A DNA stretch of 26,565 nucleotides from Thermostichus sp. DRC_bins_24. GTDB lineage: Bacteria > Cyanobacteriota > Cyanobacteriia > Thermostichales > Thermostichaceae. Below, in pieces: positions 2,376 through 26,565 of this stretch (its first letter is position 1; every line of letters begins with the position of its first letter). Location: contig JAUQVK010000040.1 in the NCBI GenBank assembly GCA_039794845.1, positions 1 to 26,565 of the forward strand. The letters run 5' to 3'. The notes beneath the pieces are model-generated. The model was not told the DNA's origin, did not search any database, and saw only the letters and a program-made list of their open reading frames with translations. The position numbers were made by a program, and so were the translations under genes.

Positions 2376-3578
2376 TTACCCCCCATAGGTGACATTGCGC
2401 TCTGTGGTGCGGAACTGGATGATGGTGAGGCCCACGACCATCAAGAACAACACAATCGATTGCGCCGCGGCCTTGCCCAAGTTGCCGGAAGAAACCCCAA
2501 TTTTGTAGATCTCGTAGATCAATACCGACGTGGAGCCGGAAGGGCCGCCGGCAGTGAGCAGATCGATAGTGCCAAAAATATCGAAAAAAGCGTAGGTCAT
2601 GTTGGTAATCACCAAAAAGAAGGTGATGGGAGAAAGCAGCGGTACGGTAATGGACAAAAAGCGGCGGAGGGCTCCGGCCCCATCAATGGCAGCGGCTTCT
2701 TGCAGATCCTTAGGCAAATTTTGCAGCCCAGCAATATAGAACAAAATGTTGTAGCCCATCTGTTTCCAAACGCTGGCGAAGATTACTACCCATGGAGCCA
2801 AATTGGGATTGCTCAGCCAATTCAAACGGGGGATCCCCACCAACCCCAGCAAATAGTTGGCCACACCCCCCAAGGGGTTAAACATAATAAAAAAGATGAT
2901 CCCCGCCACCGCCGGCGAAATGGCATAGGGCCAGATCAGGAGAATGCGATAAATCGCTGCCCCACGAATCGGTTGGTAGGCCAAGGTGGCAATCAATAGG
3001 GATCCCGTCAACCCAAAGAAAATGATGGCAGCGGAGATGGCGAAGGTGATGGTAATGCTACGTAGATAGGTAGCATCCGACAGTAGGCCCGTGAAATTAT
3101 CCACGCAGACAAAGCGGCTTCGCGGGGCACCAACGAACGTGAGCAAGGTGGAGAGGCGGAAGGTATCCAAGCCCGGATAGTAGAGGAACAGCACCAGAAT
3201 CGTCAGGGTGGGGGATAGCAACAACCAAGCCAGCCACCCCTGCTTAAAAATGCCTTTTTGTTGGGGGACTGTGCTTTTCATGCCCAGGTGACGGCGATAT
3301 TCCTGTTGGGTCCACCACAGCAGTGGCCCTAGGGGAATGGCCATGCCCACCAGCACCAACCCCAGGCCAAAGGCAATATCGATCAGCTGGCGCTCCGGTT
3401 CAAAGGTGCAAAAATCCAGCGGCACCATAAAAATCAGGGATCCCAAGCCCCCTGCCAGACCCCCCAAGAGGGCCCCCACCAGCCCGGAACGCTGCATCCG
3501 TCGAAAGCGGGATCCCACCCAAACGGCCCCGATTAACCCCGCCAACAGCGGCACCCCAATTTGGATCAACTCCAACAT
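2376..3578 (-). CDS. Carbohydrate (CUT1) ABC transporter permease, UgpA-like, with an N-terminal membrane extension of about 110 aa
   Basis: EAA loop EAAAIDGAG; ITVPLLSPITFFL; WKQMGYNILFYIAGLQ. Confidence 0.9.
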   Translation of the reverse strand: MLELIQIGVPLLAGLIGAVWVGSRFRRMQRSGLVGALLGGLAGGLGSLIFMVPLDFCTFEPERQLIDIAFGLGLVLVGMAIPLGPLLWWTQQEYRRHLGMKSTVPQQKGIFKQGWLAWLLLSPTLTILVLFLYYPGLDTFRLSTLLTFVGAPRSRFVCVDNFTGLLSDATYLRSITITFAISAAIIFFGLTGSLLIATLAYQPIRGAAIYRILLIWPYAISPAVAGIIFFIMFNPLGGVANYLLGLVGIPRLNWLSNPNLAPWVVIFASVWKQMGYNILFYIAGLQNLPKDLQEAAAIDGAGALRRFLSITVPLLSPITFFLVITNMTYAFFDIFGTIDLLTAGGPSGSTSVLIYEIYKIGVSSGNLGKAAAQSIVLFLMVVGLTIIQFRTTERNVTYGG

Positions 3579-3629
3579 GGCTTCTTCCTTCTTCGCTTAC
3601 GGCTCCTCCGGCTTCAGTTCCCACCGGCC

Positions 3630-3651
3630 AAAAAGGGGCAGGCACCTGCCC
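3630..3651 (-). terminator. Intercistronic stem-loop after the substrate-binding protein gene
   Basis: GGGCAGG-ca-CCTGCCC hairpin at 3636-3651, followed on the minus strand by CTTTTT. Confidence 0.5.
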
Positions 3652-3698
3652 ACCCCCATCCCTTTGGATCCCCCAGCCCGAATACCCCAGTGACCGGG

Positions 3699-5057
3699 CT
3701 AGTCGTAGAGGGAGTTGTATTCTGCCAGCAAACGGTTGGCCTCCTCATTGGCCCGGATCATCGCTTCCTCTGGATCCCCGCCCTGCAGCATCAGGTTTTC
3801 CATGGTTTGGGTGATCACATCGCGGGTTTGGGGGAAGGATCCCAGCAGTGCTCCCCGTGTGGCGGTGGTGACGGTGGAGTTGTTGATCTGGTCGCTGGCG
3901 GTAAAGAAGTTGGGGTTCTCTTCAAACCAACCCTGAGACTCCAGCAATTCCACCGAGCTTTCTCGGATCGGCAGATAGCCCGTCACCTGGTGCCACTCAG
4001 CGGCGTTTTCGGTGTTGTTGAGCCAGAGCATGAAGGACAGTGCCCCATCCTCCACTTCCGTGGGCAGCCCATCCACCAACCAGAGGCTCGCCCCCCCGAT
4101 CAGGTTGCCGGTCCACCCCATGTCAGCGTTGTAGGGCATACGGGTGGTGACGATCTCAATATCGTTTTCTTTGGCAGCGTTGGTGATGTTGGCAGCATCA
4201 GCGCTGCTGGTAATCGCCATGGCGACGGTGCCCGTTTGAATGGCTTGCTCGGTGGCGGCCCAATCCCGCTGACGGCCGCTATAGACGTAGTAGCCCTTGT
4301 CTTCCATGCTCTGCCACCAAGAGGCGATGGCAACAGAAGGCTCAGAATCCAAGAACAGCCGGGTGGCACGAGCAGCCCGACCATTTTGATTGTTGGCCAG
4401 AATGGCATTTTGCTGGGCCATCCACTGCTCGTAGAACCAACCGTGATTGGGCCAAGTGATGCAGCCCTGGGGAGCGTCGGGGAGGGCCATGATCTTTTCG
4501 CAGGCGGCTTCCACCTCCTGCCAGGTGGCAGGTGGGGTGTCAATGCCCGCTTTTTCCAGGATGGCGGTGTTGGAGTAGAGGATGGGGCTGGAGCTGTTCC
4601 AGGGCATGGAGGTGAACTTGCCGTCCAGGGTGTAGTAGCTCACCACCGGCTGAATGAAGTCATCGAAATTCACCGGGATCCCATTGACTTCGGTACGATC
4701 CCCGAGGGCATCGGCAATGGACTTAAAGTACCCAAAATCCCGTGCCCGCTGGGTGCCCACCTCAAACCACTGCACCACAGAAGGAGCAGCATTCTGCTGA
4801 ATGGCCAGGTCGGTGGCCTGCTGAATTTCCTCGTAGTTGGCGTAGCCCTCGACCGTCACGTTGTACTGAGGGAATTGTTCATTAAATTCGGCTGCTTTCT
4901 CCCGCGTCCAATCGAGACGGTTATCGGTAAAGGCAATCCAAACTTTCACATCAGTAGGGGATTGAGCAAAGCTGTCGGCAGCCAGAAAAGCAGCCCCAGA
5001 GGCAGCCACGAAGCCAGCGGCAACAGCTAGGAAAGTACGACGGGTGTTTGTATTCAT
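3699..5057 (-). CDS. ABC transporter extracellular solute-binding protein, UgpB-like, with Tat signal
   Basis: TRRTFL twin-arginine leader; SMPWNSSSPILY, PPATWQEV, IGGASLW, AEWHQVTGYLP. Confidence 0.92.
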   Translation of the reverse strand: MNTNTRRTFLAVAAGFVAASGAAFLAADSFAQSPTDVKVWIAFTDNRLDWTREKAAEFNEQFPQYNVTVEGYANYEEIQQATDLAIQQNAAPSVVQWFEVGTQRARDFGYFKSIADALGDRTEVNGIPVNFDDFIQPVVSYYTLDGKFTSMPWNSSSPILYSNTAILEKAGIDTPPATWQEVEAACEKIMALPDAPQGCITWPNHGWFYEQWMAQQNAILANNQNGRAARATRLFLDSEPSVAIASWWQSMEDKGYYVYSGRQRDWAATEQAIQTGTVAMAITSSADAANITNAAKENDIEIVTTRMPYNADMGWTGNLIGGASLWLVDGLPTEVEDGALSFMLWLNNTENAAEWHQVTGYLPIRESSVELLESQGWFEENPNFFTASDQINNSTVTTATRGALLGSFPQTRDVITQTMENLMLQGGDPEEAMIRANEEANRLLAEYNSLYD

Positions 5058-10189: not shown

Positions 10190-10600
10190 CTAACCCTGCT
10201 CAATGGGCGGGATCCGGGCGATCACGCCTTTTTTAAGGGGGCGTTCGGCCCAGGGCAGGATCCCATCGGGTTTGGTGAGATACAGCTCTGCGGTTTTGAG
10301 GATTGAATTCACATCTTTTTCGGGATCCAAATCTCCAAAAACATAGGTGGTCTTCGTAGGGGCAGCCAGCCCAATCACACAGGCATGGCTACATCCGCTC
10401 ATGCAGGCCACGGGTTTGAGTTTGAGTTGCGGATCCAGGGTCTGCGATTGCAATTTCTCGAGAAGGATCTCTCCTTGACTGATCCCCTCTTTTTTGCCAT
10501 TCACCCACCGGGATCCACAGGTGGTGCAGACCCAAAGGTAATGGGGATAGCTGGGTTGAGATTGAACTTGGGGTTGGGGATCTTGAAGGGTTTGAGTCAT
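10190..10600 (-). CDS. DUF1636 family predicted metal-binding protein
   Basis: VCTTC...VACMSGCSHACVI...KTTYVFGDL...DGILPWAERP...IARIPP; likely ATG at 10600. Confidence 0.9.
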   Translation of the reverse strand: MTQTLQDPQPQVQSQPSYPHYLWVCTTCGSRWVNGKKEGISQGEILLEKLQSQTLDPQLKLKPVACMSGCSHACVIGLAAPTKTTYVFGDLDPEKDVNSILKTAELYLTKPDGILPWAERPLKKGVIARIPPIEQG

Positions 10601-10683
10601 GGTGGGTTTGGGTTGTGATTTGGGTTGTAAAGGATGAAAAGAGGCTGGGATCCGGCCCAGGCGTTGGTAGTGAAAATGCAGCA

Positions 10684-12648
10684 CTAAAACTGCCCCCGCA
10701 GATTAACTTTCAGGGTGCGGCCAATGCCGGGATAGCCCGGAAACACTTCGTACTGTTGATCCAAGAGGTTGTCTACACCCACTTCTAGGGCCAAAGCCTC
10801 TGAAATCGGGATCCCGCCTTTGAGGGCAAGGGTGGTGTAGCCCGGCAAGGATTCAGTGTTGCTGTTGTTGGTAAAAAAGCCGCCAATTTGATGCATTAGC
10901 AGAGATCCATAGCTGCCATCTAACGAGCGATAAGTCAGCCCCAAATTAAAGCTATCGGCCCCCACAAAGGCCAGTTGATTGCCAATGGTGGTGGCATCCA
11001 CAGCTTCGCGGATTCGGGGGTCGTTGAGGGTGTAGTTAACAAAAGCTGTCCAGTTGGGGCTGAAGCGCAAATCTAGGGCTGCTTCTAGGCCGGTGTATTC
11101 CACCAAGCCGATGTTTTCGTAAGTGCCCGAGGTTGGGCCTGTGCTAACAAAGGTAATGCCATCTCGGATGCGATTGTGGGCAAAGGTGAGGCGCAAAAGA
11201 CCGATATCCCCCAAGGTTTGATCCAATCCAATATCGAAGCTTTCTCCCCGTTCTGGACGCAAATTGGGGTTGCCATCCACCTCAAAAAAGCCCCGCAATT
11301 GAAAAAACAATTCTGAGATCAAAGGGGTACGAAAGCTGCTGGCGTAATTGGCCCGTAGGGTGGTGCCCTCCCCTACTGTCCAGCGGATCCCGATGGCCGG
11401 AGAGGTGGCGGAGCCATTCACCAGGCTATTAAAATCCTGACGGATCCCCAAGTTGAGATTGAGATCAGGTGCTGGATCATAATCCAAACGGGCAAATAAA
11501 GCCCCCTGATTAACCCTGTCATCGTAGTTGATATTGGTGGATCCCTCAGCAAATGAAAACGTGGTGTTGCGTCCTGAAATAGAACGGTAATCGGCTCCCG
11601 CCATCAGGCTGAGCGTATCACCTATTTGTCGGTCATATTGCAGCTGGGATCCCCAGCCAGTTCTGAAAATAGTATCGCGGGATCCCTGGGTTTCAGGAGC
11701 ACTGAAGCGATAGTTGAGGTCATCCAAAAACACCCTGGCGCGCAGGGATCCCTCTTCTTGGGCCCAAAGCCAGTCGAGATCCAGTAATAGATCATTGGTG
11801 TTTTGAATGGCATCAGGAGAAGGAAAATTCGTGCTTCCTGGTACTTGAAACGCCTTTGTCAGGTACAACGCATTTAGATTGAGGGTGTGCTCCTCACTCA
11901 CTTGCCAGGTGAGCTTGGCCTGGAGGTTGTTGTACTCCACCGCCGAGTTTTCTCGGATCCCCGATTGCTCCAGACGGGCAATTTCAAAGGGAAAATCATT
12001 GGCACTTTCCAATCGGCGATAGCTGATCACCCAGCCCAGATCCTCCGCTTGGCCACGGGATTGGATCCCTTGTTCATTTAGACCATAGCTGCCGATGGCG
12101 GCCTCAAGTAGGGTTTCTGGCTCGGAGGTAGGTGCTACTGTCACGATGTTGATCACCCCGCCAATGGCATCGGATCCGTAGAGGGTGGATCCCCCCCCTG
12201 GCGCAACCTCGATTTGCTCGATCACATCGCTGGTGATCTGCGATAGATCAAACCCCCCAAAAAAGCCCAAATCGTTAATGGGCCGACCATCCAGCAACAC
12301 CAACACCTGAGCCGTGCGTCCCCCGCGCATGAATTGCGAACTGAGCGCCCCCAACTGGGTGCCGGCGGTGCCATCGCTGAGGATCCCCGGCAAATATCGC
12401 AGGGCCTCTTGAGCGGTTCTGGCCCCCTGCTCCCGAATCTGCTGGCGGGTGATCACATACACCGGACGGGAGGAATCCCGCAGTAACCCCGGACGACGAA
12501 AGGGGCTGGTCACCGGCTGATTGAGGATCTCGGCACTGATGCCCGTATCCAAAACCTCTGCCGACAGTGAATCCGGCACTTGCCCCCAGGCCGGGATCCC
12601 AATGCCCAAAATCCCCAGCCCAACGCTGAGGAAGACAAATCTATTCAC
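10684..12648 (-). CDS. btuB: TonB-dependent receptor, probable cobalamin receptor
   Basis: Plug motifs VLVLLDGRPIND and STLYGSDAIGGVINIVT; NPNLRPE; C-terminal Phe; cobalamin riboswitch upstream. Confidence 0.9.
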   Translation of the reverse strand: MNRFVFLSVGLGILGIGIPAWGQVPDSLSAEVLDTGISAEILNQPVTSPFRRPGLLRDSSRPVYVITRQQIREQGARTAQEALRYLPGILSDGTAGTQLGALSSQFMRGGRTAQVLVLLDGRPINDLGFFGGFDLSQITSDVIEQIEVAPGGGSTLYGSDAIGGVINIVTVAPTSEPETLLEAAIGSYGLNEQGIQSRGQAEDLGWVISYRRLESANDFPFEIARLEQSGIRENSAVEYNNLQAKLTWQVSEEHTLNLNALYLTKAFQVPGSTNFPSPDAIQNTNDLLLDLDWLWAQEEGSLRARVFLDDLNYRFSAPETQGSRDTIFRTGWGSQLQYDRQIGDTLSLMAGADYRSISGRNTTFSFAEGSTNINYDDRVNQGALFARLDYDPAPDLNLNLGIRQDFNSLVNGSATSPAIGIRWTVGEGTTLRANYASSFRTPLISELFFQLRGFFEVDGNPNLRPERGESFDIGLDQTLGDIGLLRLTFAHNRIRDGITFVSTGPTSGTYENIGLVEYTGLEAALDLRFSPNWTAFVNYTLNDPRIREAVDATTIGNQLAFVGADSFNLGLTYRSLDGSYGSLLMHQIGGFFTNNSNTESLPGYTTLALKGGIPISEALALEVGVDNLLDQQYEVFPGYPGIGRTLKVNLRGQF

Positions 12649-12697
12649 AGTCAGAGCTCCTTTTTCCGTGCAACGCGGAACATCAAGGACATAAGAC

Positions 12698-12830
12698 CGT
12701 AGGCGGGCATCCTGACTGAGAGATAGGCCAAAGCCTTAGCTCATCACAGTTGCGGCACAGCGCCGGATTTGCACCGGACTTTCCCCCTTACTCACCGTGG
12801 CTGATCCCCACCGTGACCTAGCGGTAGGTC
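12698..12830 (-). ncRNA. Cobalamin (B12) riboswitch
   Basis: Minus strand reads TAGGT...TAAGGGGGAAAGTCCGGTGCAAATCCGGCGCTGTGCCGCAACTGTGA...AGTCAGGATGCCCGCC, the conserved core and B12 box. Confidence 0.93.
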
Positions 12831-12956
12831 TGCATCATACCTCCAAATGGCCGGGATCCCCATCCAGCCTGGGGGGATCCCTGTGAAAGTGCCTAAGCTC
12901 TTTTCGGGGTACGGGCACCACCGACCACCGTTGTGTGGAATCAGAAGCAGCGGGCT

Positions 12957-15867: not shown

Positions 15868-16620
15868 GTAACGTCTTCCCGACGCTGACGGCTTACGCAG
15901 CACGGCGCGGGCTTTCCAAAAGCCCTTCAGTCGCCCTCCGGCTATCTCCTTCAACCCACAGGATAACCAGGAGAGGAGCCTCCAGGCCGTATTACCGACA
16001 GCCCAATCGATGGAAGGTTCTTGGCCCCGTTAAAAGCCCCATCCCCCTGCCAACCCCAATGCCCACACCCAAACCGCTTACCCCTCCGATAGGACTTATC
16101 GACATCCGGGTGAATACGCAGACATCGGTGGCACGTTTGACCGGCGTAGGCCGGATTGACCGCAACAACCTTCACACCCGCCCTCAAAGCCTTGTACTCA
16201 ATGAACCCCCTCAACCGGTGGAACCCCCAACTGTTACTGCGCCTGCGCTCGTTTGGTTGCGAGGCTGTTGGTTGGTTCTTTCCCGAAGCCCCGTTAAATC
16301 TTCCAGAGCAATGCCGGCAGACGGAGACTTAGCAGTTTCAACAATGCGTCTCGAAACAGTGTCATTCACCCCACTTTGGAATCGGCGCTCACGGCCGGAT
16401 AACCGTTGCAGCAATCCACCCACTCGGCGGCGTGTACTGCGTGTGCCCTTACTGGCTTTGTGCTGGAGCTTGGCTCTTAAGTTGGCCAAGTGGTCACGCA
16501 CCTGGGTTATGGCTTGCCCATTCCGGTGCCGTCCCTCCGAAGTGTGGGCAATATCGGTACGGCCCAAATCCACGCCCAAGACATCCCGACACCCCCTCGA
16601 AAGGGTAGGGTGCAGGGCTC
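15868..16620 (-). mobile_element. IS200/IS605-family remnant with the right end retained and the left part lost
   Basis: tnpB fragment followed on the minus strand by a GGGCTTTTGGAAAGCCC hairpin and ...AGCGTCGGGAAGACGTTAC, resembling an IS605 right end; left boundary approximate. Confidence 0.75.
15951..16600 (-). pseudogene. tnpB: tnpB pseudogene (RNA-guided nuclease), 5'-truncated and frameshifted
   Basis: RuvC-I GVDLG and RuvC-II IALEDL in one frame; frameshift near 16250; then IEYKA..AGVKVVAVNPAY..CHRC. The second Zn pair reads CGHW and RuvC-III reads DGAFNGA. Confidence 0.9.
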
Positions 16621-16727
16621 CTGCTGCCCCACCCGGGCAGGTACGGATCCTGGGCGGTAAACCGTCCTGATCAAAGCATCTGTTGGACAGCTTACACTGA
16701 AAGAACTGACTCATCGCTTGGACTGGC

Positions 16728-17330
16728 ATGATTCCCACCGTTATCGAGCAATCTGCGCGGGGCGAACGCGCCTTCGACATCTACTCGCGCCTGCTGCGGG
16801 ATCGGATCATCTTCTTAGGCACTCAGGTGGACGACGATATTGCCAACCTGATCGTGGCCCAGATGCTCTATTTGGAGTCCGAAGATCCCGAGAAAGATAT
16901 CTACCTCTACATCAACTCCCCTGGTGGCTCCGTCTACGCCGGTATGGCCATTTACGACACCATGCAGCACATTCAACCGGATGTATCCACCATCTGCATT
17001 GGGTTGGCAGCCAGTATGGGAGCTTTTCTGCTGGCGGGCGGCACCAAGGGTAAGCGCATTGCCCTCCCCCACGCCCGCATCATGATCCACCAACCCCTAG
17101 GCGGGGCACAGGGGCCAGCCACCGACATCGAAATTCAGGCCAAAGAAATCCTCTACATCAAACAAAGCCTGAACAGCCTGCTGGCTCACCACACCGGCCA
17201 GCCCTTGGAGCGCATCGAACGGGATACCGACCGCGACAACTTCATGACCCCAGAACAAGCCAAAGAGTACGGCCTCATCGATCAAGTGATCAGCAAGCGA
17301 CCCCAACCGACCTTGGCAGCGGTTTCCTAA
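16728..17330 (+). CDS. clpP: ATP-dependent Clp protease proteolytic subunit
   Basis: [44 protein letters not shown]. Confidence 0.98.
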
Positions 17331-19803: not shown

Positions 19804-20136
19804 ATGCAAACGTTACCGAAAGAGCGTCGCTACGAGACCCTGTCCTATTTGCCTCCCCTCACCGACCTGCAAATCAGCAAGCAACTGCAGTACATCTTGG
19901 ATCAGGGCTATATTCCTGCTGTGGAATTCAACGAGTCTTCTGAGCCAACCGTGTATTACTGGACGATGTGGAAGCTGCCGCTGTTTAACGCCACCTCCAC
20001 CCAAGAGGTGCTGAGCGAAGTGCAATCCTGCCGCAGCACTTACCCCAACTGCTTCATCCGGGTGGTGGGGTTCGACAACATCAAGCAGTGCCAAATCCTC
20101 AGCTTCTTGGTGCATAAGCCCAGCGGTGTGCGCTAA
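19804..20136 (+). CDS. rbcS: RuBisCO small subunit
   Basis: [19 protein letters not shown]...[10 protein letters not shown]. Confidence 0.99.
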
Positions 20137-20163
20137 TCACTCAGTTTGTTCAGTCATCACCTT

Positions 20164-20240
20164 GTGAGCCCTGAGTAGGGTTCACCTACCCAAAACAGTA
20201 GGGAGGGGGCCAACACGACATCTCTCCCTGCTTTTTCTTT
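20164..20240 (+). terminator. Two stem-loops / terminator after rbcS
   Basis: GTGAGCCCT-gagt-AGGGTTCAC, then AGTAGGGAG...CTCCCTGCT followed by TTTTCTTT. Confidence 0.7.
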
Positions 20241-20499
20241 ACTTGTTCTCCCCTTGCTCCACTTTGGGGGGATGCGAATGCGGCTTCCACTGATAGTCCC
20301 CCTACGACAACCGAGGGATCCCCCATGGGGGACTAAAATCTAAAATTATGCCTCTGGTGGGCTATGCCAACGGACTAGATTGGGGGGCTAACCGGCTAGC
20401 GACATCCAGTCACAAGCCTGCAGCACAGTGGCTCAGGGAAAACCTCCAGTATCCTTACCCTGGGCGATACGCACGCTATGGTGGGGAATCCTAGAGCAA

Positions 20500-20548
20500 T
20501 GGCTCAGGCGTGATTTGAACACGCGACCAAGGGCTTATGAGTCCTCTG
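20500..20548 (-). tRNA. 3' half of tRNA-Met(CAT) only; att-site direct repeat, not an intact tRNA
   Basis: Minus strand GGACTCATAAGCCCTTGGTCGCGTGTTCAAATCACGCCTGAGCCA gives the anticodon loop, T arm and 3' acceptor strand. No D arm or 5' acceptor strand lies upstream. Confidence 0.88.
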
Positions 20549-20739
20549 TGCCTATATCTAGAAGCTTTATCCCATAGGCATTACAGCTACCCACCAGAAA
20601 ACCTTCACCCTATCCTTCACCACTTTTACTGTCCCTTTGAGTCCGTTCCAGTCCCGTTTAGGGGTACGATTGACAATCCTTACATACCCCTGTGGCAAGA
20701 GAGAGGGATAATCCTGAAATAGGCGGTAGTGGGCATGCT

Positions 20740-21000
20740 TTACCCCGCCAGCGAGCGCATAAAGTCTCTCAGGGATGTTGCTGTTAGCGAACACGGGGCC
20801 GTGCTTGGGTCTGGATCCGTATTAGCTATCTCTTTGTGGGCCAGAGCCTGGCCCACTTTATCAGTGGGACGAGCCAAGAACCACTGAAAGACCAACAGCA
20901 GCACCTCCCCTGGATAGCGCAGCCCAGTCACCTTCTGCAACCGCTCAATCTGGGGTAACAGCTCCACCGGGATCCTCACCCGCACCTGCACCGTTCTCAT
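20740..21000 (-). CDS. Ribbon-helix-helix protein, ParR-like adaptor
   Basis: MRTVQVRVRIPVELLPQIERLQ fits the RHH strand-helix pattern; ATGA overlap with the parM stop (20997-21000). Confidence 0.7.
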   Translation of the reverse strand: MRTVQVRVRIPVELLPQIERLQKVTGLRYPGEVLLLVFQWFLARPTDKVGQALAHKEIANTDPDPSTAPCSLTATSLRDFMRSLAG

Positions 21001-21917
21001 ACCCCACAAAGCCCCAGCACCTGAGCAAACTGGGGATCCTCAACCACCTTGAACCACCTCTGCTCTCCCATCCGTTTCAACCACCCAGCCGCCAACGGAG
21101 CCGCCCCACCCGCCACCAGAATCACCCCAATCCTCTCCAACCAGGGGTCCCAACGGTTGAGAGCTTCACTGAGGATCCCCTTCAACCACAGATCACACCG
21201 CTCCTCAAAGAACCCGGCAAAACTCACCCCCTGAACTCCGTAGGCAAAGGATCTCTCAGCAATCCCATCCATGATCAGTTCAATCTTGGGCGTCCCCACC
21301 ACCTGACAGGTCAACCTGGGATCCGCCGCAATATCCCCAGCCAGCCCATAAACCCCACCCCGCCTCAACACAACCCGTGCCCCCTCAATCTGGGATCCCT
21401 GCTCATCCACCAGAGTGGCAATCGCTGTCCCTCCACCCAGATCCAGGATCCCAGTCAGGGTACGAGGCACCGTCAACCCCTGCTGCTGGCCATACCAGTA
21501 GATCCCCATCCCCTCTGGCTGCACCTGCACAGAATTGATGACCACTGTGACACTCTGCCCATGGACAAGAATATGGTGCTCGCCAATCAGCGCCTTTTGG
21601 AGTAGATCCCCTTCCCCTGGATCCGGCAGACTCATCACCAAGTCCAGCTCTAGATCCTCCGCTCCTAAAACCCCCAGCACCAGACGTAGGGCACACTCAT
21701 GCTTCTCACTCAGCCAAGTACGGATGCCCCGGCGATGGTTCCTGGCTTGGTGCCCCACCACCCAAGAAGTTCCCACCAGTTCCGATTGGGATCCCTGCAC
21801 ATAGTGAACCGCTCCCGAACCGGATCCCTGGACATGGGCATAGATGGACTCCACTGCCCACACTTGTCCCTGATGCGCCACTTTGACAAAGCGATTGCCC
21901 AAATCAATAGCGGTCAT
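20997..21917 (-). CDS. parM: ParM/StbA family actin-like ATPase
   Basis: Actin-fold motifs AIDLGNRFVK, VQPEGMG, ILDLGGGT and LVAGGAA; 306 aa. Confidence 0.9.
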   Translation of the reverse strand: MTAIDLGNRFVKVAHQGQVWAVESIYAHVQGSGSGAVHYVQGSQSELVGTSWVVGHQARNHRRGIRTWLSEKHECALRLVLGVLGAEDLELDLVMSLPDPGEGDLLQKALIGEHHILVHGQSVTVVINSVQVQPEGMGIYWYGQQQGLTVPRTLTGILDLGGGTAIATLVDEQGSQIEGARVVLRRGGVYGLAGDIAADPRLTCQVVGTPKIELIMDGIAERSFAYGVQGVSFAGFFEERCDLWLKGILSEALNRWDPWLERIGVILVAGGAAPLAAGWLKRMGEQRWFKVVEDPQFAQVLGLCGV

Positions 21918-22068
21918 AGCATCTCATTACTAAAGAGTCGCCACACTGTAGCCAAAGAACGCACAGACTCAAAATAAGACCTTGTGACTCCTATTGAGAC
22001 TTGTCAACCTGACATCTGTGTAGGAATGCAGTAGGCTCTGTGGATTGTTGAGCCGGTCAGCCCTACCC

Positions 22069-22242
22069 ATGAGTCGTATTGCCCTGTGTCGCCCCGTCGT
22101 GGGTCATCGTTCCACTATCACAAAGGAGGATAAAAAGCGCATCTATCAACTGGCCCAACAGGGACTAACTCCTCAACAAATTGCCCTACGCTTAGGAGTT
22201 TCAGTCAGCACAGTGCGCAATTATCATGCAAACTGCCCTTAG
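22069..22242 (+). CDS. Small helix-turn-helix protein
   Basis: KKRIYQLAQQGLTPQQIALRLGVSVSTVRNY. Confidence 0.8.
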   Translation: MSRIALCRPVVGHRSTITKEDKKRIYQLAQQGLTPQQIALRLGVSVSTVRNYHANCP

Positions 22243-23071
22243 CCCCAGCACTAGATCTGGTTCCGCTTGCTATAGGTACACGGAGCAGCGGCGAATTGTG
22301 GGGGGCTTGTTATCGGGAAACTCCCTGTTGGTCGTAGGAGAACCGGGATCCGGCAAGAGTACCCTGGCCCACTTTGTCCGCCGAGAGCTGATGGGATTCA
22401 GACAGGTGCATCTGACCGCTTCCACCCCAAAGCAGATGGTGGAGAGCGTGGCCGAGCAATTGGGAGTAGAGGCCACCACCCTGGAGGGCAAGAAGATGAC
22501 CTTGGCCCAGTTGCAAACCGCGTTGTTTGCCGACTTGATGGGACAGACTGCGATATTCATCTGTGACGATGCCGAGCAATATCCCCTCTCATTGCGGCAA
22601 TGGCTAGAGTCCTTGCTCTCCACCAAGGCCGTGCTGTTGGTGTTGGCCACCTGGCCCCCCGCCAAAGACTTGTTCCTCAAACTGCCTCGCCTGGAATTGG
22701 ATCCCCTGCCAGAAGCCTCTATCCGTGACTGCATCCAGAGTGCGGCAGATGAACTAGGGATCCGGCTCAACCCTGGGAAAGTCTCCAACCTGATGGAGAG
22801 ATGTGGTGGAAATCCCATGCTGGCTAAGCGAGTCGTCTTGGAGGAGCACTTAGGTCTGAGAATCACGGGGCCTGACCATACCCAATGGATTGACGGCACC
22901 CCCTTCTTGGTGGCCTTTTTGATGTGCTTCACCCTGGTCAGGTTCCTGGGCTTAGGCTTCAGCAGTACCAGTCTCTATCTCTTGGGAGCCATCCTGACGG
23001 TGGTGGCCGCCATCGCCCGGTTGATACTCTACTCCCTGCCCCGTCGCAAAGGGAGGCTGGGTCAACGATGA
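22226..23071 (+). CDS. AAA+ ATPase (ExeA/AAA_22-like) with two C-terminal transmembrane helices
   Basis: Walker A GEPGSGKS, Walker B IFICDD, CGGNP motif, hydrophobic C-terminal hairpin. Confidence 0.85.
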   Translation: MQTALSPSTRSGSACYRYTEQRRIVGGLLSGNSLLVVGEPGSGKSTLAHFVRRELMGFRQVHLTASTPKQMVESVAEQLGVEATTLEGKKMTLAQLQTALFADLMGQTAIFICDDAEQYPLSLRQWLESLLSTKAVLLVLATWPPAKDLFLKLPRLELDPLPEASIRDCIQSAADELGIRLNPGKVSNLMERCGGNPMLAKRVVLEEHLGLRITGPDHTQWIDGTPFLVAFLMCFTLVRFLGLGFSSTSLYLLGAILTVVAAIARLILYSLPRRKGRLGQR

Positions 23072-24111
23072 TGAGCCTTACCCATGCCATCTTTGCTGTC
23101 ACTGCCTCCAGCCTCACCCTGGGATCCGCCTCACCCTGGGTACTCATGGCAGCAGCCTTGGGATCCCAACTCCCCGACTGCGATACCTCCACCAGCTATC
23201 CGGGCAGGATCCTCAAACCCATCAGCACCCGACTCGAAGCCCGCTACCCCCACCGAACAGTCACCCATAGTTTCTTAGCCACCGGGATCCTGGCACTAGC
23301 CAGCTTGCCTTTGGCTCTGTTTGGCCTCCCGTGGGGTGGATTAGTGACGGGCTATTTCTACGGTTGGTTTGCCGATGTGTTCACCAAATCAGGAGTGCCC
23401 GCCTTTTGGCCGAGCAGAGCCAGACTGGTCATCCCCGGCAATCCCCGCCTCAGGCTTTCAACAGGATCCCCTGCTGAATGGGTAGTGCTGGGCATCTGTC
23501 TAGTGCTGCTCATCATCTCCATCAACATCCACTCCCAAGGAGGTCTTATGAGAACCTTCAACCTGTGGATGGGGATCCCTAGTGGAGCCATCGAACTGGT
23601 CAACCAAGACCAAGACAAGTTCTTGTTGGTGGCTGACATTGACGGCATCAATACCCTGAGTCAGCAACGGGTGGAGGGATCCTATCAGGTCATCCGTACC
23701 CTGGGATCCTCTGACCTTCTCTTGGAACAGGATGGTGGGTTCTATCAGGCCGGAGGCGGAGTCAATGCTCAGCTCCGTCTATCCAGAATCTTCATTCGTC
23801 GGGGACAACCCATCACCTCCCAGGTCGAACAACTCACCTTCCAAGAGCAACCCTTCCTCCTGCCCCCTGATGAGGGATCCCCCATCCAAGTCCATTACAG
23901 CGGCGTTGTGCAACTGGAAGATGCCTTTGACTTATCCATCACCCCCAGTGTGGAGGAGTACCAGCCTGTCACGTTGCAATACCTAGGAGATGACCGGGTG
24001 ATGCTGCGCTTCACCTCTGCTAGAGCCAGTGACCTGGCCCCCTTCCTGGGCTACTGGGGATCCGGGCAAATGCTGGTCAGACGACTCTATCCAGCCGGAA
24101 GTGGCCCATGA
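23068..24111 (+). CDS. YdjM-like membrane metal-dependent hydrolase with C-terminal soluble domain
   Basis: LTH, GSQLPDCD, HRTVTHS, ADVFTKSGVPAFWP; start at the ATGA overlap at 23068. Confidence 0.88.
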   Translation: MMSLTHAIFAVTASSLTLGSASPWVLMAAALGSQLPDCDTSTSYPGRILKPISTRLEARYPHRTVTHSFLATGILALASLPLALFGLPWGGLVTGYFYGWFADVFTKSGVPAFWPSRARLVIPGNPRLRLSTGSPAEWVVLGICLVLLIISINIHSQGGLMRTFNLWMGIPSGAIELVNQDQDKFLLVADIDGINTLSQQRVEGSYQVIRTLGSSDLLLEQDGGFYQAGGGVNAQLRLSRIFIRRGQPITSQVEQLTFQEQPFLLPPDEGSPIQVHYSGVVQLEDAFDLSITPSVEEYQPVTLQYLGDDRVMLRFTSARASDLAPFLGYWGSGQMLVRRLYPAGSGP

Positions 24112-25307
24112 TCTTTGCACCCAGAGAAGCCCCCTTACCCCCAGCAAGACTCTTCCCCAGCCCCAAAATGGGGTCCCCCGTCGAACCTGCAAGCGGGATC
24201 CTGTTGGGTCAGACCACCCATTGGGATCCCCATGTCCTGCCCAATCCTCATGTAGTGGTGATTGGTGCCAGTGGCAGCGGCAAAACCCAAACCCTCAAAG
24301 CCCTGGCCTATGAACTCAGTCAGACATCTCACAAGCAGATTCTCATCATCGACTTCCATGGTGACCAGTCCCTTCCAGGAGAAACCGTCTATCCCCTGCA
24401 CATGGCCAGTCCCCATGGCATCAACCCCCTCACCGTCAATCCAGACCCCGAAGGAGGTGGGCCACACCTACAGGCTATCCAGATTGCCATGCTCCTGCGT
24501 AAGGCCTTGGCCCTTGGCCCCATCCAGGAGGGACTACTGCTGGATATCCTCAAACAGCTTTACCTCAACCACGGGATCCTGCAATCTCAACCGGATTCCT
24601 GGACATTGCCTCCCCCCACCTTTGCCCACCTCGAACAGATCATCCAGAAACAGGTGGAGGAGGGCAGCACTGACCATACCAAGTTGCAAATCAAGCTGGC
24701 CGCCACCTTCAGCTACGGTATCTTTTCCCGCCCCCAACCCGACTTCACAGCCCCCTTGATCCGGCTGGATGTCTCCAAGCTACCTCCCGCCCTGGGATCC
24801 ATTGCTGCCGAATCTCTAGCTCATCAACTCATGAACCAGCACAGGTTACAGGGGGAATCTGCCCCCAGGACATTCGTATTCATTGACGAAGCCAAGGAGA
24901 TGCCCAAGACTAGTGGATCGGCCCTTGACCGCCTCATCATGGATGGTCGCAAATACGGCCTGGCCCTGATTCTGGCCAGTCAGAGTGAACGACATCTCTC
25001 CAAAGAGGTGATTGCCAACTCTGCCACCAAGATTGTCCTGCCCGTTGACCAAACCGAAGTCAAACCTGTTGCCCGCAAATTCCGGTTCGCCGAACACCTC
25101 ATTGCCCAACTCACTCCCCTCACCGCCCTCGTCAGACTGGGATCCCAAGCGGCCCATGTGACGATCCACCCCTACTACCGCCGTGTTACAGAAACTCTTC
25201 CGTCTGTTTATACAACCTCAGCCTCAACAACAGAGGCCCCCCCTCAATCACAAACAGATCCAGAGAGCCCAGACCGTTTACAAAATCCTGGACTCTCTCC
25301 CCCCTGA
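24108..25307 (+). CDS. HerA/VirB4/FtsK-superfamily (DUF87-type) ATPase
   Basis: PHVVVIGASGSGKT, IIDFHGD, INPL, FVFIDEA, GRKYGLALILASQ, IAN. Confidence 0.88.
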   Translation: MIFAPREAPLPPARLFPSPKMGSPVEPASGILLGQTTHWDPHVLPNPHVVVIGASGSGKTQTLKALAYELSQTSHKQILIIDFHGDQSLPGETVYPLHMASPHGINPLTVNPDPEGGGPHLQAIQIAMLLRKALALGPIQEGLLLDILKQLYLNHGILQSQPDSWTLPPPTFAHLEQIIQKQVEEGSTDHTKLQIKLAATFSYGIFSRPQPDFTAPLIRLDVSKLPPALGSIAAESLAHQLMNQHRLQGESAPRTFVFIDEAKEMPKTSGSALDRLIMDGRKYGLALILASQSERHLSKEVIANSATKIVLPVDQTEVKPVARKFRFAEHLIAQLTPLTALVRLGSQAAHVTIHPYYRRVTETLPSVYTTSASTTEAPPQSQTDPESPDRLQNPGLSPP

Positions 25308-25479
25308 CTGGAGCTACAGCCAGAGGCAGCAGTTCATCAAAGACTGGACTGGCAAAGCCTGTAGCCGCAAACTCATCGCCCGTTGGCAGAAGGAGAGAAA
25401 TGCTGCGAATCATCACCATCCTGGCCCTGGCCCACCTCCTGGTAGCTCTACCCGCCCACGCACAACTACGCATCAGTGA
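25183..25479 (+). CDS. Small hypothetical protein, HTH-like (GTG start; overlaps both neighbours)
   Basis: WSYSQRQQFIKDWTGKACSRKLIARWQKE helix-turn-helix-like pattern; fills the gap in the operon. Confidence 0.6.
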   Translation: MLQKLFRLFIQPQPQQQRPPLNHKQIQRAQTVYKILDSLPPDWSYSQRQQFIKDWTGKACSRKLIARWQKERNAANHHHPGPGPPPGSSTRPRTTTHQ

Positions 25480-25864
25480 CGGCGATACCCTCACCCTCAA
25501 TCGAGAACGTATCCGACTGGCCTGCATTGATGCCCCCGAATCCGATCAACCCTATGGCCCCCAGTCCGCCGCCCGACTCAGGGATCTGCTAGGCACGGGA
25601 TCCATCAGAGTCCAACCCCTCGCCACTGACCGCTATGGCCGTTCCATTGCCAAACTTTATATCGGGGAAACCCTTGTCCAAGAGGCTTTGGTCAGAGAGG
25701 GATTGGCCTGGGTTTATCCCCAATTCCTGCACCGCTGCCCTACCACCGCTACCCGTCTGCAGAACGCCCAACAAACGGCACAACAACACCGCCTCGGCCT
25801 ATGGGCTGACCCACACCCGATTCCCCCATGGGTTTGGAGAAGTGGGCCACCACGAAGAAGATAA
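25400..25864 (+). CDS. Thermonuclease (SNase) family protein with signal peptide
   Basis: Leader ending AHA; DGDT, RIRLACIDAPE, DRYGR, LVREGLA, GLWA..PPWVWR. Confidence 0.95.
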   Translation: MLRIITILALAHLLVALPAHAQLRISDGDTLTLNRERIRLACIDAPESDQPYGPQSAARLRDLLGTGSIRVQPLATDRYGRSIAKLYIGETLVQEALVREGLAWVYPQFLHRCPTTATRLQNAQQTAQQHRLGLWADPHPIPPWVWRSGPPRRR

Positions 25865-25866
25865 TC

Positions 25867-26496
25867 ATGCTCTTCGCTCAGCTCCCACCCCCTACACCAC
25901 CCCCAGAAGTCAGGCCCCAACGACCCTACAAGGTCACTCTCACCCTGACTGACCCGAACCAATTGCAAGTTCAAGTCGGCCAATCCCTCTCAGTGGGATC
26001 CATCCTGGCCAAGCGTACCGATCCCACCCTAGAACTCAAACGGGCACAACTCCTCGCCAGGCTCGAGAGTCTCGATAGCAGGGATCCCCCAGACGATTTC
26101 TTCAGAACCGTCCGCCTGCGAGAATTGGAATACCAGCGACTGCGCCAGGAATACGAAACCCAATACAACCTCGTCACCCGATTAACAGCCCTACCGGATC
26201 CCCCACCCTCTCTCCAGCGGCAAGAACTCAATACCCTCCACTCCCTTTACAGCCGCTTGCAACTGGCCCATGAACGCTTAGCCCAAGCCCACCGGGAAGC
26301 CACACGGCAGCAACGAAACGACCAACTCACGACTGAGCAACAGAAAGCTGACCTCACCCACCAAGTCCAGCTCCTGGAACACGAGATCGCCCTGACCACC
26401 ATCCGCTCCCCGGTCGCAGGAACCGTCTCCAGAATCCAATTCACCAGCCAGACCAACCAGACCCTCCATGTGGAAATCCAGATTACTCCCCGTTAG
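25867..26496 (+). CDS. HlyD/membrane-fusion-protein-like adaptor
   Basis: Lipoyl half-motifs VQVGQSLSVGSILA and IRSPVAGTVSRI flanking a long coiled coil. Confidence 0.78.
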   Translation: MLFAQLPPPTPPPEVRPQRPYKVTLTLTDPNQLQVQVGQSLSVGSILAKRTDPTLELKRAQLLARLESLDSRDPPDDFFRTVRLRELEYQRLRQEYETQYNLVTRLTALPDPPPSLQRQELNTLHSLYSRLQLAHERLAQAHREATRQQRNDQLTTEQQKADLTHQVQLLEHEIALTTIRSPVAGTVSRIQFTSQTNQTLHVEIQITPR

Positions 26497-26565
26497 CCTC
26501 CTCCTCGTGGGCCTCCAGCCCGCCCTAGCGGATCCCATCCCTCTGCTGCAAGAGCAAATCCGCAT
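26468..26565 (+). CDS. N-terminus of an exported protein (partial, runs off the window)
   Basis: My translation is MWKSRLLPVSLLLVGLQPALA-DPIPLLQEQIR, a Sec signal peptide; it overlaps the end of the HlyD-like gene. Confidence 0.65.
   Translation, partial: MWKSRLLPVSLLLVGLQPALADPIPLLQEQIR

Follow-up and report, generated by a model that had tools for sequence, protein, structure and literature searches.

The stretch analysed here (the window) comprises positions 1 to 26,565 of contig JAUQVK010000040.1 of Thermostichus sp. DRC_bins_24, and it ends in an operon that appears to be a plasmid-backbone cassette lodged in the chromosome. This cassette is uncharacterised, is common on cyanobacterial plasmids and is partly shared with plasmids of Thermus and some proteobacteria; there is hardly any doubt that it is a real and conserved unit. 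Its main components are a membrane-anchored P-loop ATPase of the AAA_22 type (AAA-TM), a polytopic membrane protein of the YdjM family, a soluble ATPase of the FtsK/HerA superfamily, an adaptor-like family termed CC, a candidate outer-membrane protein (family f7) and an exported staphylococcal-nuclease-type protein (SNase). YdjM, the CC adaptor and f7, which resembles proteins of the OEP/TolC type, probably form an assembly that spans the cell envelope. That nucleic acid is what this assembly handles falls somewhat short of an even chance, and relaxase-independent export or transfer of DNA is put forward tentatively as its purpose.

In the reading that we favour, the assembly would be driven by ATP and would span the whole envelope, on the tripartite plan of type I secretion or efflux systems but powered by another kind of engine in the inner membrane. 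YdjM would reside in the inner membrane, with its metal site in the cytoplasm and its β-rich C-terminal domain in the periplasm, beside the membrane-anchored AAA_22 ATPase. CC would act as a minimal adaptor of the HlyD/EmrA type, carrying a small cytoplasmic N-terminal domain in some lineages and reaching, in most relatives, a half-size OEP/TolC-like outer-membrane protein, while the exported SNase would be attached to, or work beside, the periplasmic base. Cyanobacteria would add the soluble FtsK/HerA-superfamily ATPase on the cytoplasmic side as a motor. Plasmid DNA would be passed out of the cell without a relaxase or type IV secretion, and the periplasmic nuclease would be an accessory that destroys stray or incoming DNA, in the manner of an exclusion function. 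The adaptor presumably contacts f7, just as the cargo is presumably DNA and its direction of transport presumably outward. In its most specific form, a new DNA secretion or transfer system independent of both relaxase and type IV secretion system (T4SS), built on a type-I-like scaffold and sending plasmid DNA to competent neighbours with SNase as the entry-exclusion factor, the proposal is a speculative one.

The evidence for the cassette as a unit is its conservation. Among the candidates scored, 466 relatives of the FtsK/HerA-type ATPase were found at E ≤ 1e-3; with one genome scanned per species, 126 relatives were confirmed and the best 80 were used, of which 78 bear cyanobacterial titles and two the title ‘uncultured bacterium’ (best identity 79%). 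The loci of this analysis are designated by L-numbers and the homologous proteins by P-numbers. Crude calls of open reading frames (ORFs) were clustered, six-frame translations were then searched with hidden Markov models (HMMs) of the families, and presence was counted only over loci with enough flank. The recurrent gene order is [small gene]-AAA-TM-YdjM-ATPase-(f9)-CC-f7, in which f9 denotes a small basic protein, often followed by opposite-strand genes of a family termed f4 and by SNase. Upstream of the ATPase gene, YdjM was present in 57 of 67 loci and AAA-TM in 55 of 62; downstream of it, CC was found in 60 of 61, f7 in 36 of 49 and f4 in 18 of 38, and SNase lay within 10 kb in 20 of 38. 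The preliminary description of this DNA had made its proposal depend on the gene set being kept together elsewhere, and the same order indeed occurs in dozens of genomes.

Plasmids are a common setting of the cassette. PLSDB contains 27 plasmid records that hold at least 80% of the ATPase, and the best 27 matches are all cyanobacterial, with identities of 41–64%. Cassette plasmids include pSYSX of Synechocystis PCC 6803 (two copies), pSYLC of PCC 6714, and plasmids of S. elongatus PCC 11801 and UTEX 3055, Microcystis, Nostoc and Anabaena; several copies per genome were observed. The cassette directly adjoins ParA/ParB, CyRepA1 and KfrA_N genes, ParA being encoded within 10 kb of the ATPase in 28 of 47 loci, and an ArdC-type gene is located near it in L003, in L030 and on p1 of S. 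elongatus PCC 11801. On the 33-kb plasmid of the latter strain the cassette is accompanied by CyRepA1, ParAB, a recombinase, an ArdC-like gene and a thermonuclease, and by little else that would count as backbone. Four copies of a module comprising ATPase, SNase, CC and an exported coiled-coil protein (family f32) come from the closest relative genome, the metagenome-assembled Synechococcaceae SM2_3_2 (L003, L004, L005 and L030), in which an ArdC-N gene follows the module in L003 and L030. MOB-suite classed 72 of 74 YdjM-bearing plasmids as non-mobilizable, and all seven plasmids examined in detail are typed likewise.

The neighbourhood was surveyed through one representative of each of the 54 families that had two or more members within ±10 kb of the 80 loci (single-member families were excluded). 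Pfam assigned these neighbours to tyrosine integrases, LexA/CI-like repressors, KfrA_N, ParA/ParB, toxin-antitoxin proteins, methyltransferases, Uma2 and transposases; AbiEi and HepT/MNT genes are also frequent. There was no relaxase or VirB-type family among the 54, and a T4SS, ATP-binding cassette (ABC) or resistance-nodulation-division (RND) partner, which the preliminary description had suggested might account for the genes, was not conserved among them either; the single ABC_tran family occurs at four loci only and is not adjacent to the cassette. A role in plasmid maintenance, in which the ATPases and membrane proteins tether or segregate copies in polyploid cells or aid replication, would be in keeping with the adjoining partition and replication genes, with the ParM-like gene that adjoins the cassette in the window, and with the general knowledge that FtsK-family ATPases segregate DNA. 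Periplasmic and outer-membrane parts and an exported nuclease, however, have no place in segregation, and the plasmids already carry ParAB, making maintenance a very unlikely function. A LexA/CI-like repressor (HTH_3 plus Peptidase_S24, family f18) is encoded upstream of the cassette in L008, L013, L017, L028 and L033. The ydjM gene of E. coli belongs to the SOS regulon, and in some lineages DNA damage may induce the cassette.

Searches with YdjM (tblastn) revealed homologues that cover its whole length, C-terminal domain included, on ten small plasmids of Thermus and on plasmids of Allochromatium, Nitrosococcus and Methylobacter, and AAA-TM and YdjM are paired on those of Thermus, Allochromatium and Nitrosococcus. 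Judged from these sequences, the most widely shared core appears to be AAA-TM and YdjM (with the adaptor), with the FtsK/HerA-type ATPase as a cyanobacterial addition. In L086 (Allochromatium pALVIN01) and L087 (Nitrosococcus plasmid A) the pair is located in a block with siphovirus Gp157-family, ssb and helix-turn-helix (HTH) genes; a CHAP-domain peptidoglycan hydrolase gene comes after the pair on pALVIN01, and a MazF-type toxin gene stands between AAA-TM and YdjM on plasmid A. A phage module was considered and rejected, as the phage collection returned one partial YdjM match and three weak ATPase matches. The ATPase also gave 161 matches on Pseudomonas and other proteobacterial plasmids; these are partial P-loop alignments (∼35% of the query) to DUF87/DUF5710 proteins and do not represent the cassette.

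YdjM matches its Pfam family (PF04307), and its metal ligands D37, D39, H62, H67, D103 and E137 are invariant in 24 sequences, as is R63. The C-terminal domain (∼190 aa) is β-rich. Since the K/R-rich loops 35–67 and 106–136 precede the strongest and last membrane helix (139–154), the metal site is predicted to be inside and the C-terminal domain outside, in the periplasm. Matches to the Zn-dependent phospholipase C family of Pfam, weak and below the cut-off (E 3e-4 to 1e-2), were observed for the YdjM proteins of L085 (12001–13638), P0200, P0217 and P0249, and the metal site may be that of a phosphodiesterase resembling phospholipase C or P1 nuclease. A search of the Protein Data Bank (PDB) with the YdjM profile returned nothing. 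In the AAA-TM alignment (A5) no variation is seen at the Walker A residues G41, G43 and K44 or at the Walker B residue D114, and the hydrophobic hairpin at the C-terminus is likewise conserved; the profile matched only generic P-loop proteins in the PDB (RecA, midasin, RuvB), and the protein-cluster atlas contained only unnamed AAA_22 clusters. A predicted complex of YdjM (A4) with AAA-TM (A5) scored 0.30 against a mark of 0.32, a result that counts neither way.

Gene fusions tie YdjM to the adaptor and the nuclease. On Thermus plasmid pTthSNM1-1c a YdjM of 545 aa is encoded together with an AAA ATPase, a ‘TolC family’ protein of 236 aa and a thermonuclease. The 200 extra residues of this YdjM, a coiled coil between lipoyl-like segments, match the CC profile (hhalign 95.4%, E 1.7e-8). 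A profile search yielded 306 YdjM clusters at E ≤ 1e-30, and 34 of the best 150 are 457–737 aa in length. All 34 pass the Pfam YdjM model, eight have a sub-threshold lipoyl match and eight match the CC model; taken together as a profile, their extensions match CC over 55 columns (hhalign 98.1%, E 1.3e-13). One of these long proteins, P0264, has SNase as its C-terminal domain (64.4 bits; cut-off 21), giving the architecture YdjM-CC-SNase, and the CC protein of Aliterella (L011) likewise ends in SNase (1.8e-17). A separate search for YdjM forms longer than 609 aa found none. The YdjM-CC, YdjM-CC-SNase and CC-SNase fusions argue that YdjM, adaptor and nuclease belong to one periplasmic assembly, and that the adaptor has YdjM (with AAA-TM) as its partner in the inner membrane. 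They also fit the predicted topology, in which the C-terminal domain of YdjM is periplasmic. It had been suggested from the window that a HerA-like ATPase replaces the usual efflux pump; the fusions place YdjM in that position instead.

The adaptor assignment of CC is based on its architecture. Members of the family contain an N-terminal membrane segment or lipobox, a β segment (...LKVKxGxxVxxGQIIxD...), a long helical region and a second β segment (...V[RK]SPxxGxIxRIK...). The AlphaFold model of a full-length member (L052; mean predicted local distance difference test (pLDDT) 83.2) has a transmembrane segment at 3–25, strands at 71–99, helices at 101–345, one of them 130 residues long, and strands at 348–377, that is, a split lipoyl-like β domain around a hairpin. 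Foldseek returned six matches at E ≤ 1e-3, namely four HlyD chains, EmrA and one Smc coiled coil (HlyD at 1e-4, EmrA at 9.6e-4), with TM-scores of 0.15–0.26, which are low, as is to be expected of long hairpins. The anchor, split lipoyl domain and hairpin that define a membrane fusion protein (MFP) are therefore all seen in the family. Sequence models are less accommodating: the NCBIfam scores of the family are 25.5 against 208.65 for HlyD and 23.7 against 129 for DevB, the CC profile found nothing meaningful among PDB sequences, and the window protein has no Pfam match and scores 21.1 bits against 208.65 with type_I_hlyD. The window protein had been called HlyD-like, a label that holds for the fold of its full-length relative and fails as a family-level sequence match for the protein itself. 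The modelled structure suggests that CC works like the lipoyl-hairpin part of an MFP, yet by sequence it is not a member of that family.

The candidate for the outer-membrane end of the assembly is f7, a protein of ∼345 aa with a signal-like N-terminus that is encoded by the next gene after CC in most relatives. Pfam OEP matched 11 of 18 members at E ≤ 0.01 (best 3.1e-6), in each case as a single repeat; one member scored 20.1 bits, below the cut-off of 22. The 236-aa Thermus plasmid protein, also with one repeat, reached 38.1 bits against that cut-off. The best Foldseek matches of a mediocre f7 model are also mostly channels of the TolC/OprM type, though none is better than E 0.09, and we lean, with reservation, towards f7 being a distant, half-size outer-membrane factor. 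The envelope-spanning conduit of the preliminary description thus gains support, from the adaptor fold and the OEP-like partner, for its spanning part, while DNA as its cargo is a matter of inference.

The nuclease matches Pfam SNase (PF00565), and a hydrophobic, signal-like segment can be read at its N-terminus. The window protein carries the motifs DGDT...RLxxIDAPE...DRYGR, which we take to be the SNase catalytic motifs. Proteins of family f4, for which Pfam has no family, look secreted; they are ∼215 aa long (some 300–420) with signal-like N-termini, and are encoded by one to three tandem opposite-strand copies between f7 and SNase (L020–L081; for example L052 13197–15344, minus strand). 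These proteins, SNase or a small molecule could be the cargo if the assembly were a type-I-like exporter of something other than DNA, in which YdjM and AAA-TM would correspond to MacB/HlyB, CC to MacA/HlyD and f7 to TolC. Such a function would be consistent with the HlyD/EmrA-like fold of CC, with the OEP matches of f7, with the f4 genes present in 18 of 38 loci and with the versions in Thermus, Allochromatium and Nitrosococcus that do without the FtsK/HerA-type ATPase. Nevertheless, an SNase fused to CC or YdjM cannot be free cargo; YdjM retains hydrolase-type metal ligands and not a transporter signature; no ABC, RND or major facilitator superfamily (MFS) transporter is found in the operon or as a conserved neighbour; and the FtsK/HerA-type ATPase, the plasmid-backbone position and the company of ArdC and ssb would be left unexplained. 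Export of a non-DNA cargo is consequently judged improbable.

The soluble ATPase has neither a membrane segment nor a hydrophobic N-terminus; the GASGSGKT motif and the DEAK block do not vary in the alignment (A1), and the N-terminus starting at 24108 is conserved, with P9 and P11 invariant. Walker A and B motifs and a DUF87 core place it in the FtsK/HerA P-loop superfamily, and profile matches in the PDB are to DptH, HerA and EccC (DptH 7es4, 1.1e-18 over residues 35–300). PADLOC aligned it with mad8 (2.5e-25, positions 14–298 of the 314-position profile) and DndH (9e-18). TrwB_AAD_bind passes its cut-off, but the N-terminal membrane anchor of a type IV coupling protein (VirD4/TraD/TrwB) is absent, and the HerA equivalog models score 34.1 against 800. 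Of the original designation as a HerA/VirB4 ATPase, superfamily membership stands, whereas a close relationship to VirB4, CedB or HerA does not, DptH/DndH and mad8 being nearer. In many relatives (L067–L082; P0020, P0027 and P0031; plasmid NC_019750.1) the ATPase is 472–516 aa long owing to an inserted GIY-YIG nuclease domain, which splits the match to the window ATPase into two pieces and looks like a homing-endonuclease-type insertion. The presence of a nuclease and of an ATPase of the FtsK/HerA type, the accompanying par, rep, ArdC and ssb genes and the lack of other transfer genes suggest a nucleic acid substrate. A transfer device is favoured as the simplest explanation of an envelope machine that is large, fixed and driven by ATP and that belongs to the backbone of plasmids without other transfer genes; the layout, moreover, copies that of one-step type I secretion.

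A number of results weigh against the DNA-export reading. With respect to the adaptor, none of 30 CC members matches the HlyD-type Pfam model; the structural model ends after the lipoyl domain, without the β-barrel and membrane-proximal domains of true MFPs, and the window protein is devoid of the membrane anchor or lipobox present in its relatives. The f7 model (pLDDT 68.8) consists of long helices and contains no strands, and its best Foldseek matches, mostly OprJ, OprN, TolC, CusC and OprM, include none at E ≤ 1e-3 (all E ≥ 0.09, TM-scores 0.2–0.35). The f7 profile had no match among PDB sequences, the f7 HMM did not detect the Thermus OEP protein, hhalign gave no relation between the two (probability 0.2%), and f7 is absent from 13 of 49 loci, including the three closest relatives of the window with enough flank. 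For the proposed motor, the nearest characterised relatives, DptH/DndH and mad8, are defence proteins, while the NCBIfam models of transfer ATPases lie far out of reach: VirB4_CagE (34.6 bits against 643.1), the CD1110 type (40.9 against 325) and TraC (24 against 567), the coupling proteins TraD_Ftype (16.7 against 521) and CD1115 (18.3 against 250), and CedB (44.2 against 700) and CedD (54.7 against 600). An HMM search at E ≤ 0.01 detected no such ATPase in the Thermus, Allochromatium and Nitrosococcus modules, so the DNA motor would be outside the most widely shared core. It is also odd to find a non-specific nuclease in the periplasmic base of a machine that exports intact DNA; no nickase or other stand-in for a relaxase came to light, and a literature search (supplementary tables excluded) found no published account of the cassette.

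Several of these observations lead to the main rival of DNA export, a periplasmic gatekeeper that serves in exclusion or defence. Here the scaffold would position SNase, and perhaps the YdjM hydrolase, against DNA crossing the envelope, whether transforming DNA, rival plasmids or phage DNA, while the DptH/mad8-like ATPase would act on DNA in the cytoplasm. The fusions in L011 and P0264 show the nuclease to be physically tied to the machine, the closest characterised relatives of the ATPase are those just named, neighbours such as methyltransferases, Uma2, toxin-antitoxin, AbiEi and HepT/MNT genes are frequent, and there are several copies per genome. Thermus, Synechocystis and S. elongatus are naturally competent. 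There is also a precedent in YokF, a membrane-localised thermonuclease that blocks nanotube-mediated plasmid transfer in B. subtilis (10.1101/2025.10.26.684598). Conversely, the absence of SNase within 10 kb in 18 of 38 loci tells against a gatekeeper as it does against DNA export with a nuclease accessory. PADLOC recognised no complete system, with zero matches for YdjM and CC and weak ones only for AAA-TM. A lone periplasmic nuclease would be enough for exclusion, so that the two ATPases, the adaptor and the outer-membrane protein would have no evident purpose, and the par/rep linkage and fixed gene order resemble a plasmid backbone more than a shuffling defence island. On balance the gatekeeper is rather unlikely, although it is a serious competitor.

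The operon of the window (Table 1) agrees in most respects with what had been read from its sequence. ORF calls reproduced the eight co-oriented plus-strand genes, their ATGA couplings (23068 and 24108) and the 2 bp that separate the SNase gene from the CC gene at 25867, and profile searches of each ORF confirmed two ATPases, the YdjM membrane protein and an SNase with a signal-like segment. The HTH gene overlaps the AAA-TM gene by 17 nt; its position is occupied in other lineages by unrelated small genes (families f5, f13-f14 and f15-f9; 37 of 49 loci). The f9 gene shares its first part with the unconserved end of the ATPase gene and its last part with the beginning of the SNase gene. Its domain has no Pfam family, but the motif ...GxxCSRKLIxxWxKER also follows the ATPase in 27 of 63 loci and, in the alignment, is fused to the CC N-terminus, before the membrane segment, in L009, L014, L073, L076 and L082. 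This recurrence and fusion indicate that the small ORF is a real gene. The window copy departs from the canonical order in that the SNase gene stands between the f9 gene and CC, and the next gene encodes an unrelated exported coiled-coil protein (f32); no f7 gene is visible in the window. Full-length f32 homologues (188 aa) follow CC in L003, L005 and L030, and hhalign detected no relation between f32 and f7 (probability 0.1%).

Table 1. Genes of the operon, followed by other features of the window; bit scores are given against the cut-off of the model
Feature	Position	Strand	Evidence or remark
HTH protein, 57 aa, first operon gene	22069..22242	+	Pfam HTH_23 1.6e-7, 31.4 bits vs 24.6; HTH_7 3.1e-7
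AAA-TM, AAA_22-type P-loop ATPase with C-terminal two-helix membrane hairpin	22226..23071	+	Pfam AAA_22 2e-10, 41.5 bits vs 27
YdjM-family polytopic membrane protein with ∼190-aa C-terminal domain	23068..24111	+	Pfam YdjM 6.9e-21, 75 bits vs 29, residues 1–154
Soluble FtsK/HerA-superfamily ATPase, 399 aa	24108..25307	+	TrwB_AAD_bind 39.1 bits vs 20.5; DUF87 30.3 vs 23.2
Small basic protein, family f9	25183..25479	+	‘CSRKLIxxWxKER’ domain
SNase (staphylococcal-nuclease-type), 154 aa	25400..25864	+	Pfam SNase 2.6e-23, 82.9 bits vs 21
CC family, short member, 209 aa	25867..26496	+	Aligns with both lipoyl halves of the family
Start of exported coiled-coil protein (family f32), cut by window end	26468..26565	+	Frame read, starting at ATG 26468; MWKSRLLPVSLLLVGLQPALA/DP...
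ParM/actin-like protein (ALP), segregation ATPase	20997..21917	-	Pfam ALP_N 2.5e-7, 31.4 bits vs 26.3
Small ORF after ALP gene	20740–21009	-	
ABC genes	2376–5057		Chromosomal uptake system
DUF1636 gene	10190–10684	-	
TonB-dependent receptor	10684–12648	-	
Cobalamin riboswitch	12685–12837	-	45.5 bits vs 31.5
ORF adjoining clpP	16211–16780	-	OrfB_IS605, weak, E 6.4e-4, below cut-off

Positions 1–20136 are ordinary cyanobacterial chromosome, with gnd (6-phosphogluconate dehydrogenase), an ABC uptake system, hflX, a flavodiiron protein, a TonB-dependent receptor, clpP and rbcL-rbcX-rbcS. Next to rbcS follow the ALP gene on the minus strand, divergent from the operon, and the eight plus-strand genes up to the window end. 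The ALP gene is a plasmid-type gene in a chromosomal setting; its protein matches the NCBIfam models ParM and PRTRC-D weakly, below their cut-offs, and no homologue was found beside the cassette among 82 other loci. The element had been described as integrated at a tRNA, a claim that was not borne out: ARAGORN detected no tRNA gene in the window, and the sole gathering-level Rfam match was the cobalamin riboswitch. The statement that the window lacks a relaxase, VirB-type, RND or phage structural gene was upheld by the Pfam scan, and the only ABC genes are those of the chromosomal uptake system, ∼17 kb from the operon.

It is conceivable, if improbable, that this particular copy is a decaying remnant of an integrated plasmid whose machine no longer works. 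It lies in a chromosomal setting directly after rbcS, its CC is half-length and lacks the anchor, no OEP-like gene occurs in its three closest relatives with enough downstream flank, and the genome of the closest relative contains partial copies (L004 and L005 without AAA-TM and YdjM; L030 with an ATPase split into 220 and 162 aa). However, all eight ORFs are intact with conserved motifs, and the ratio of non-synonymous to synonymous substitution (dN/dS) of the ATPase against its nearest relatives is 0.13–0.18, a rough estimate as dS (∼1.1–1.3) is near saturation; dS for SNase and CC is saturated. The window ends 1.3 kb past the ATPase, so that later genes are outside the view. The palindrome GGGATCCC is also relevant. 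It occurs 38 times in the window against 1.36 expected, a number reached in none of 100 shuffles (examples are at 145, 2227, 12853, 23160 and 26081), and behaves as a highly iterated palindrome (HIP) of the host; we take this variant to be characteristic of hot-spring Synechococcus of the JA-type lineage. The palindrome is equally dense inside the island (nine copies in ∼6.3 kb, from 20315) and outside it (29 in ∼20 kb), which argues that the island has been resident for long and was not recently acquired from a distant lineage.

Other features of the window were noted in passing. Within 20500–26565, plus-strand GC skew is strongly negative (-0.27 to -0.33) at 20.5–22 kb and 25–26.5 kb, far more so than anywhere in the chromosomal part. 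Between 20100 and 22300 the att-like or parC-like repeats sought were limited to short, HIP-centred matches, and a scan of 20100–26565 found no promoter-like and two terminator-like sites, fewer than in shuffles and hence uninformative. In the chromosomal part, the cobalamin riboswitch is upstream of the TonB-dependent receptor and DUF1636 genes, which probably form a B12 or corrinoid uptake operon, and the ORF adjoining clpP is possibly a transposase remnant.

If DNA export is indeed the purpose of the cassette, it would explain the movement of most cyanobacterial and small Thermus plasmids now scored as ‘non-mobilizable’, and would give a phylum that matters to ecology and biotechnology a new transfer route. 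If the cassette is a gatekeeper, it would represent a new envelope-level barrier to gene flow and to the genetic engineering of the strains that bear it. In either case a YdjM-family protein would acquire its first cellular role, and the tripartite MFP/TolC architecture a new kind of inner-membrane engine. The carriers include the model strains Synechocystis PCC 6803, PCC 6714, S. elongatus PCC 11801 and UTEX 3055.

Among known systems, the closest in layout are the tripartite machines HlyB-HlyD-TolC, MacAB-TolC and EmrAB-TolC, which combine an inner-membrane engine, an adaptor with lipoyl domain and long hairpin, and an OEP-family protein, a layout that the cassette would share with f7 as the candidate outer-membrane part. 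In some CC proteins, as in HlyD, a small N-terminal domain in the cytoplasm precedes the membrane segment. The engine of the tripartite systems, however, is an ABC, RND or MFS transporter, whereas the cassette has YdjM with a separate membrane-anchored AAA_22 ATPase; their adaptors contain β-barrel and membrane-proximal domains that CC lacks, and TolC has two OEP repeats per protomer where the OEP-like protein of the cassette has one. The cassette further adds a nuclease and the FtsK/HerA-type ATPase to the tripartite plan. FtsK/HerA-type ATPases drive relaxase-independent DNA transfer in Thermus TdtA transjugation, the Sulfolobus Ced system and Streptomyces TraB. With these the cassette has in common an ATPase of that superfamily on a mobile element without a relaxase or VirB-type channel, and its ATPase gives weak NCBIfam matches, far below the cut-offs, to CedD (54.7 bits) and CedB (44.2 bits). 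It differs in having no CedA-like protein (Pfam and NCBIfam gave no CedA-like match, which sets it apart from the Ced import system), no TraB-type clt-binding domain and no NurA, and conversely in possessing a putative MFP/OEP-like bridge, YdjM and an exported SNase, none of which those systems are known to have.

The Dnd/Dpt and MADS defence systems provide, in DptH/DndH and mad8, the closest sequence relatives of the cassette ATPase. DndH is ∼1,700 aa in length and only its C-terminal part is the ATPase-like module, compared with 399 aa for the entire cassette protein. Other Dnd/Dpt or MADS genes were found neither in the window nor among the recurrent neighbours, nor by PADLOC among seven operon proteins, and identity with a known defence system was rejected as PADLOC identified no complete one. 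MPF_C, the cyanobacterial type IV secretion class, represented by pCC7120alpha (alr7199–alr7213), comprises VirB4, homologues of VirB3/6/8/9/10, a relaxase and VirD4 (PMC4027160, PMC8600333). It resembles the cassette in being borne by cyanobacterial plasmids and in its putative function in DNA transfer (PMC4027160, PMC8600333), but the two are not identical, as the cassette has none of these proteins and its ATPase scores 34.6 against the VirB4 cut-off of 643. Finally, YokF of B. subtilis is a membrane-localised thermonuclease with an SNase fold and a signal peptide that, as is proposed for the cassette SNase, is placed at a membrane machine and acts on passing plasmid DNA (10.1101/2025.10.26.684598). 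YokF is the product of a single prophage gene in a Gram-positive host and docks on FlhA (10.1101/2025.10.26.684598), whereas the cassette SNase belongs to a multi-gene cassette of diderm bacteria.

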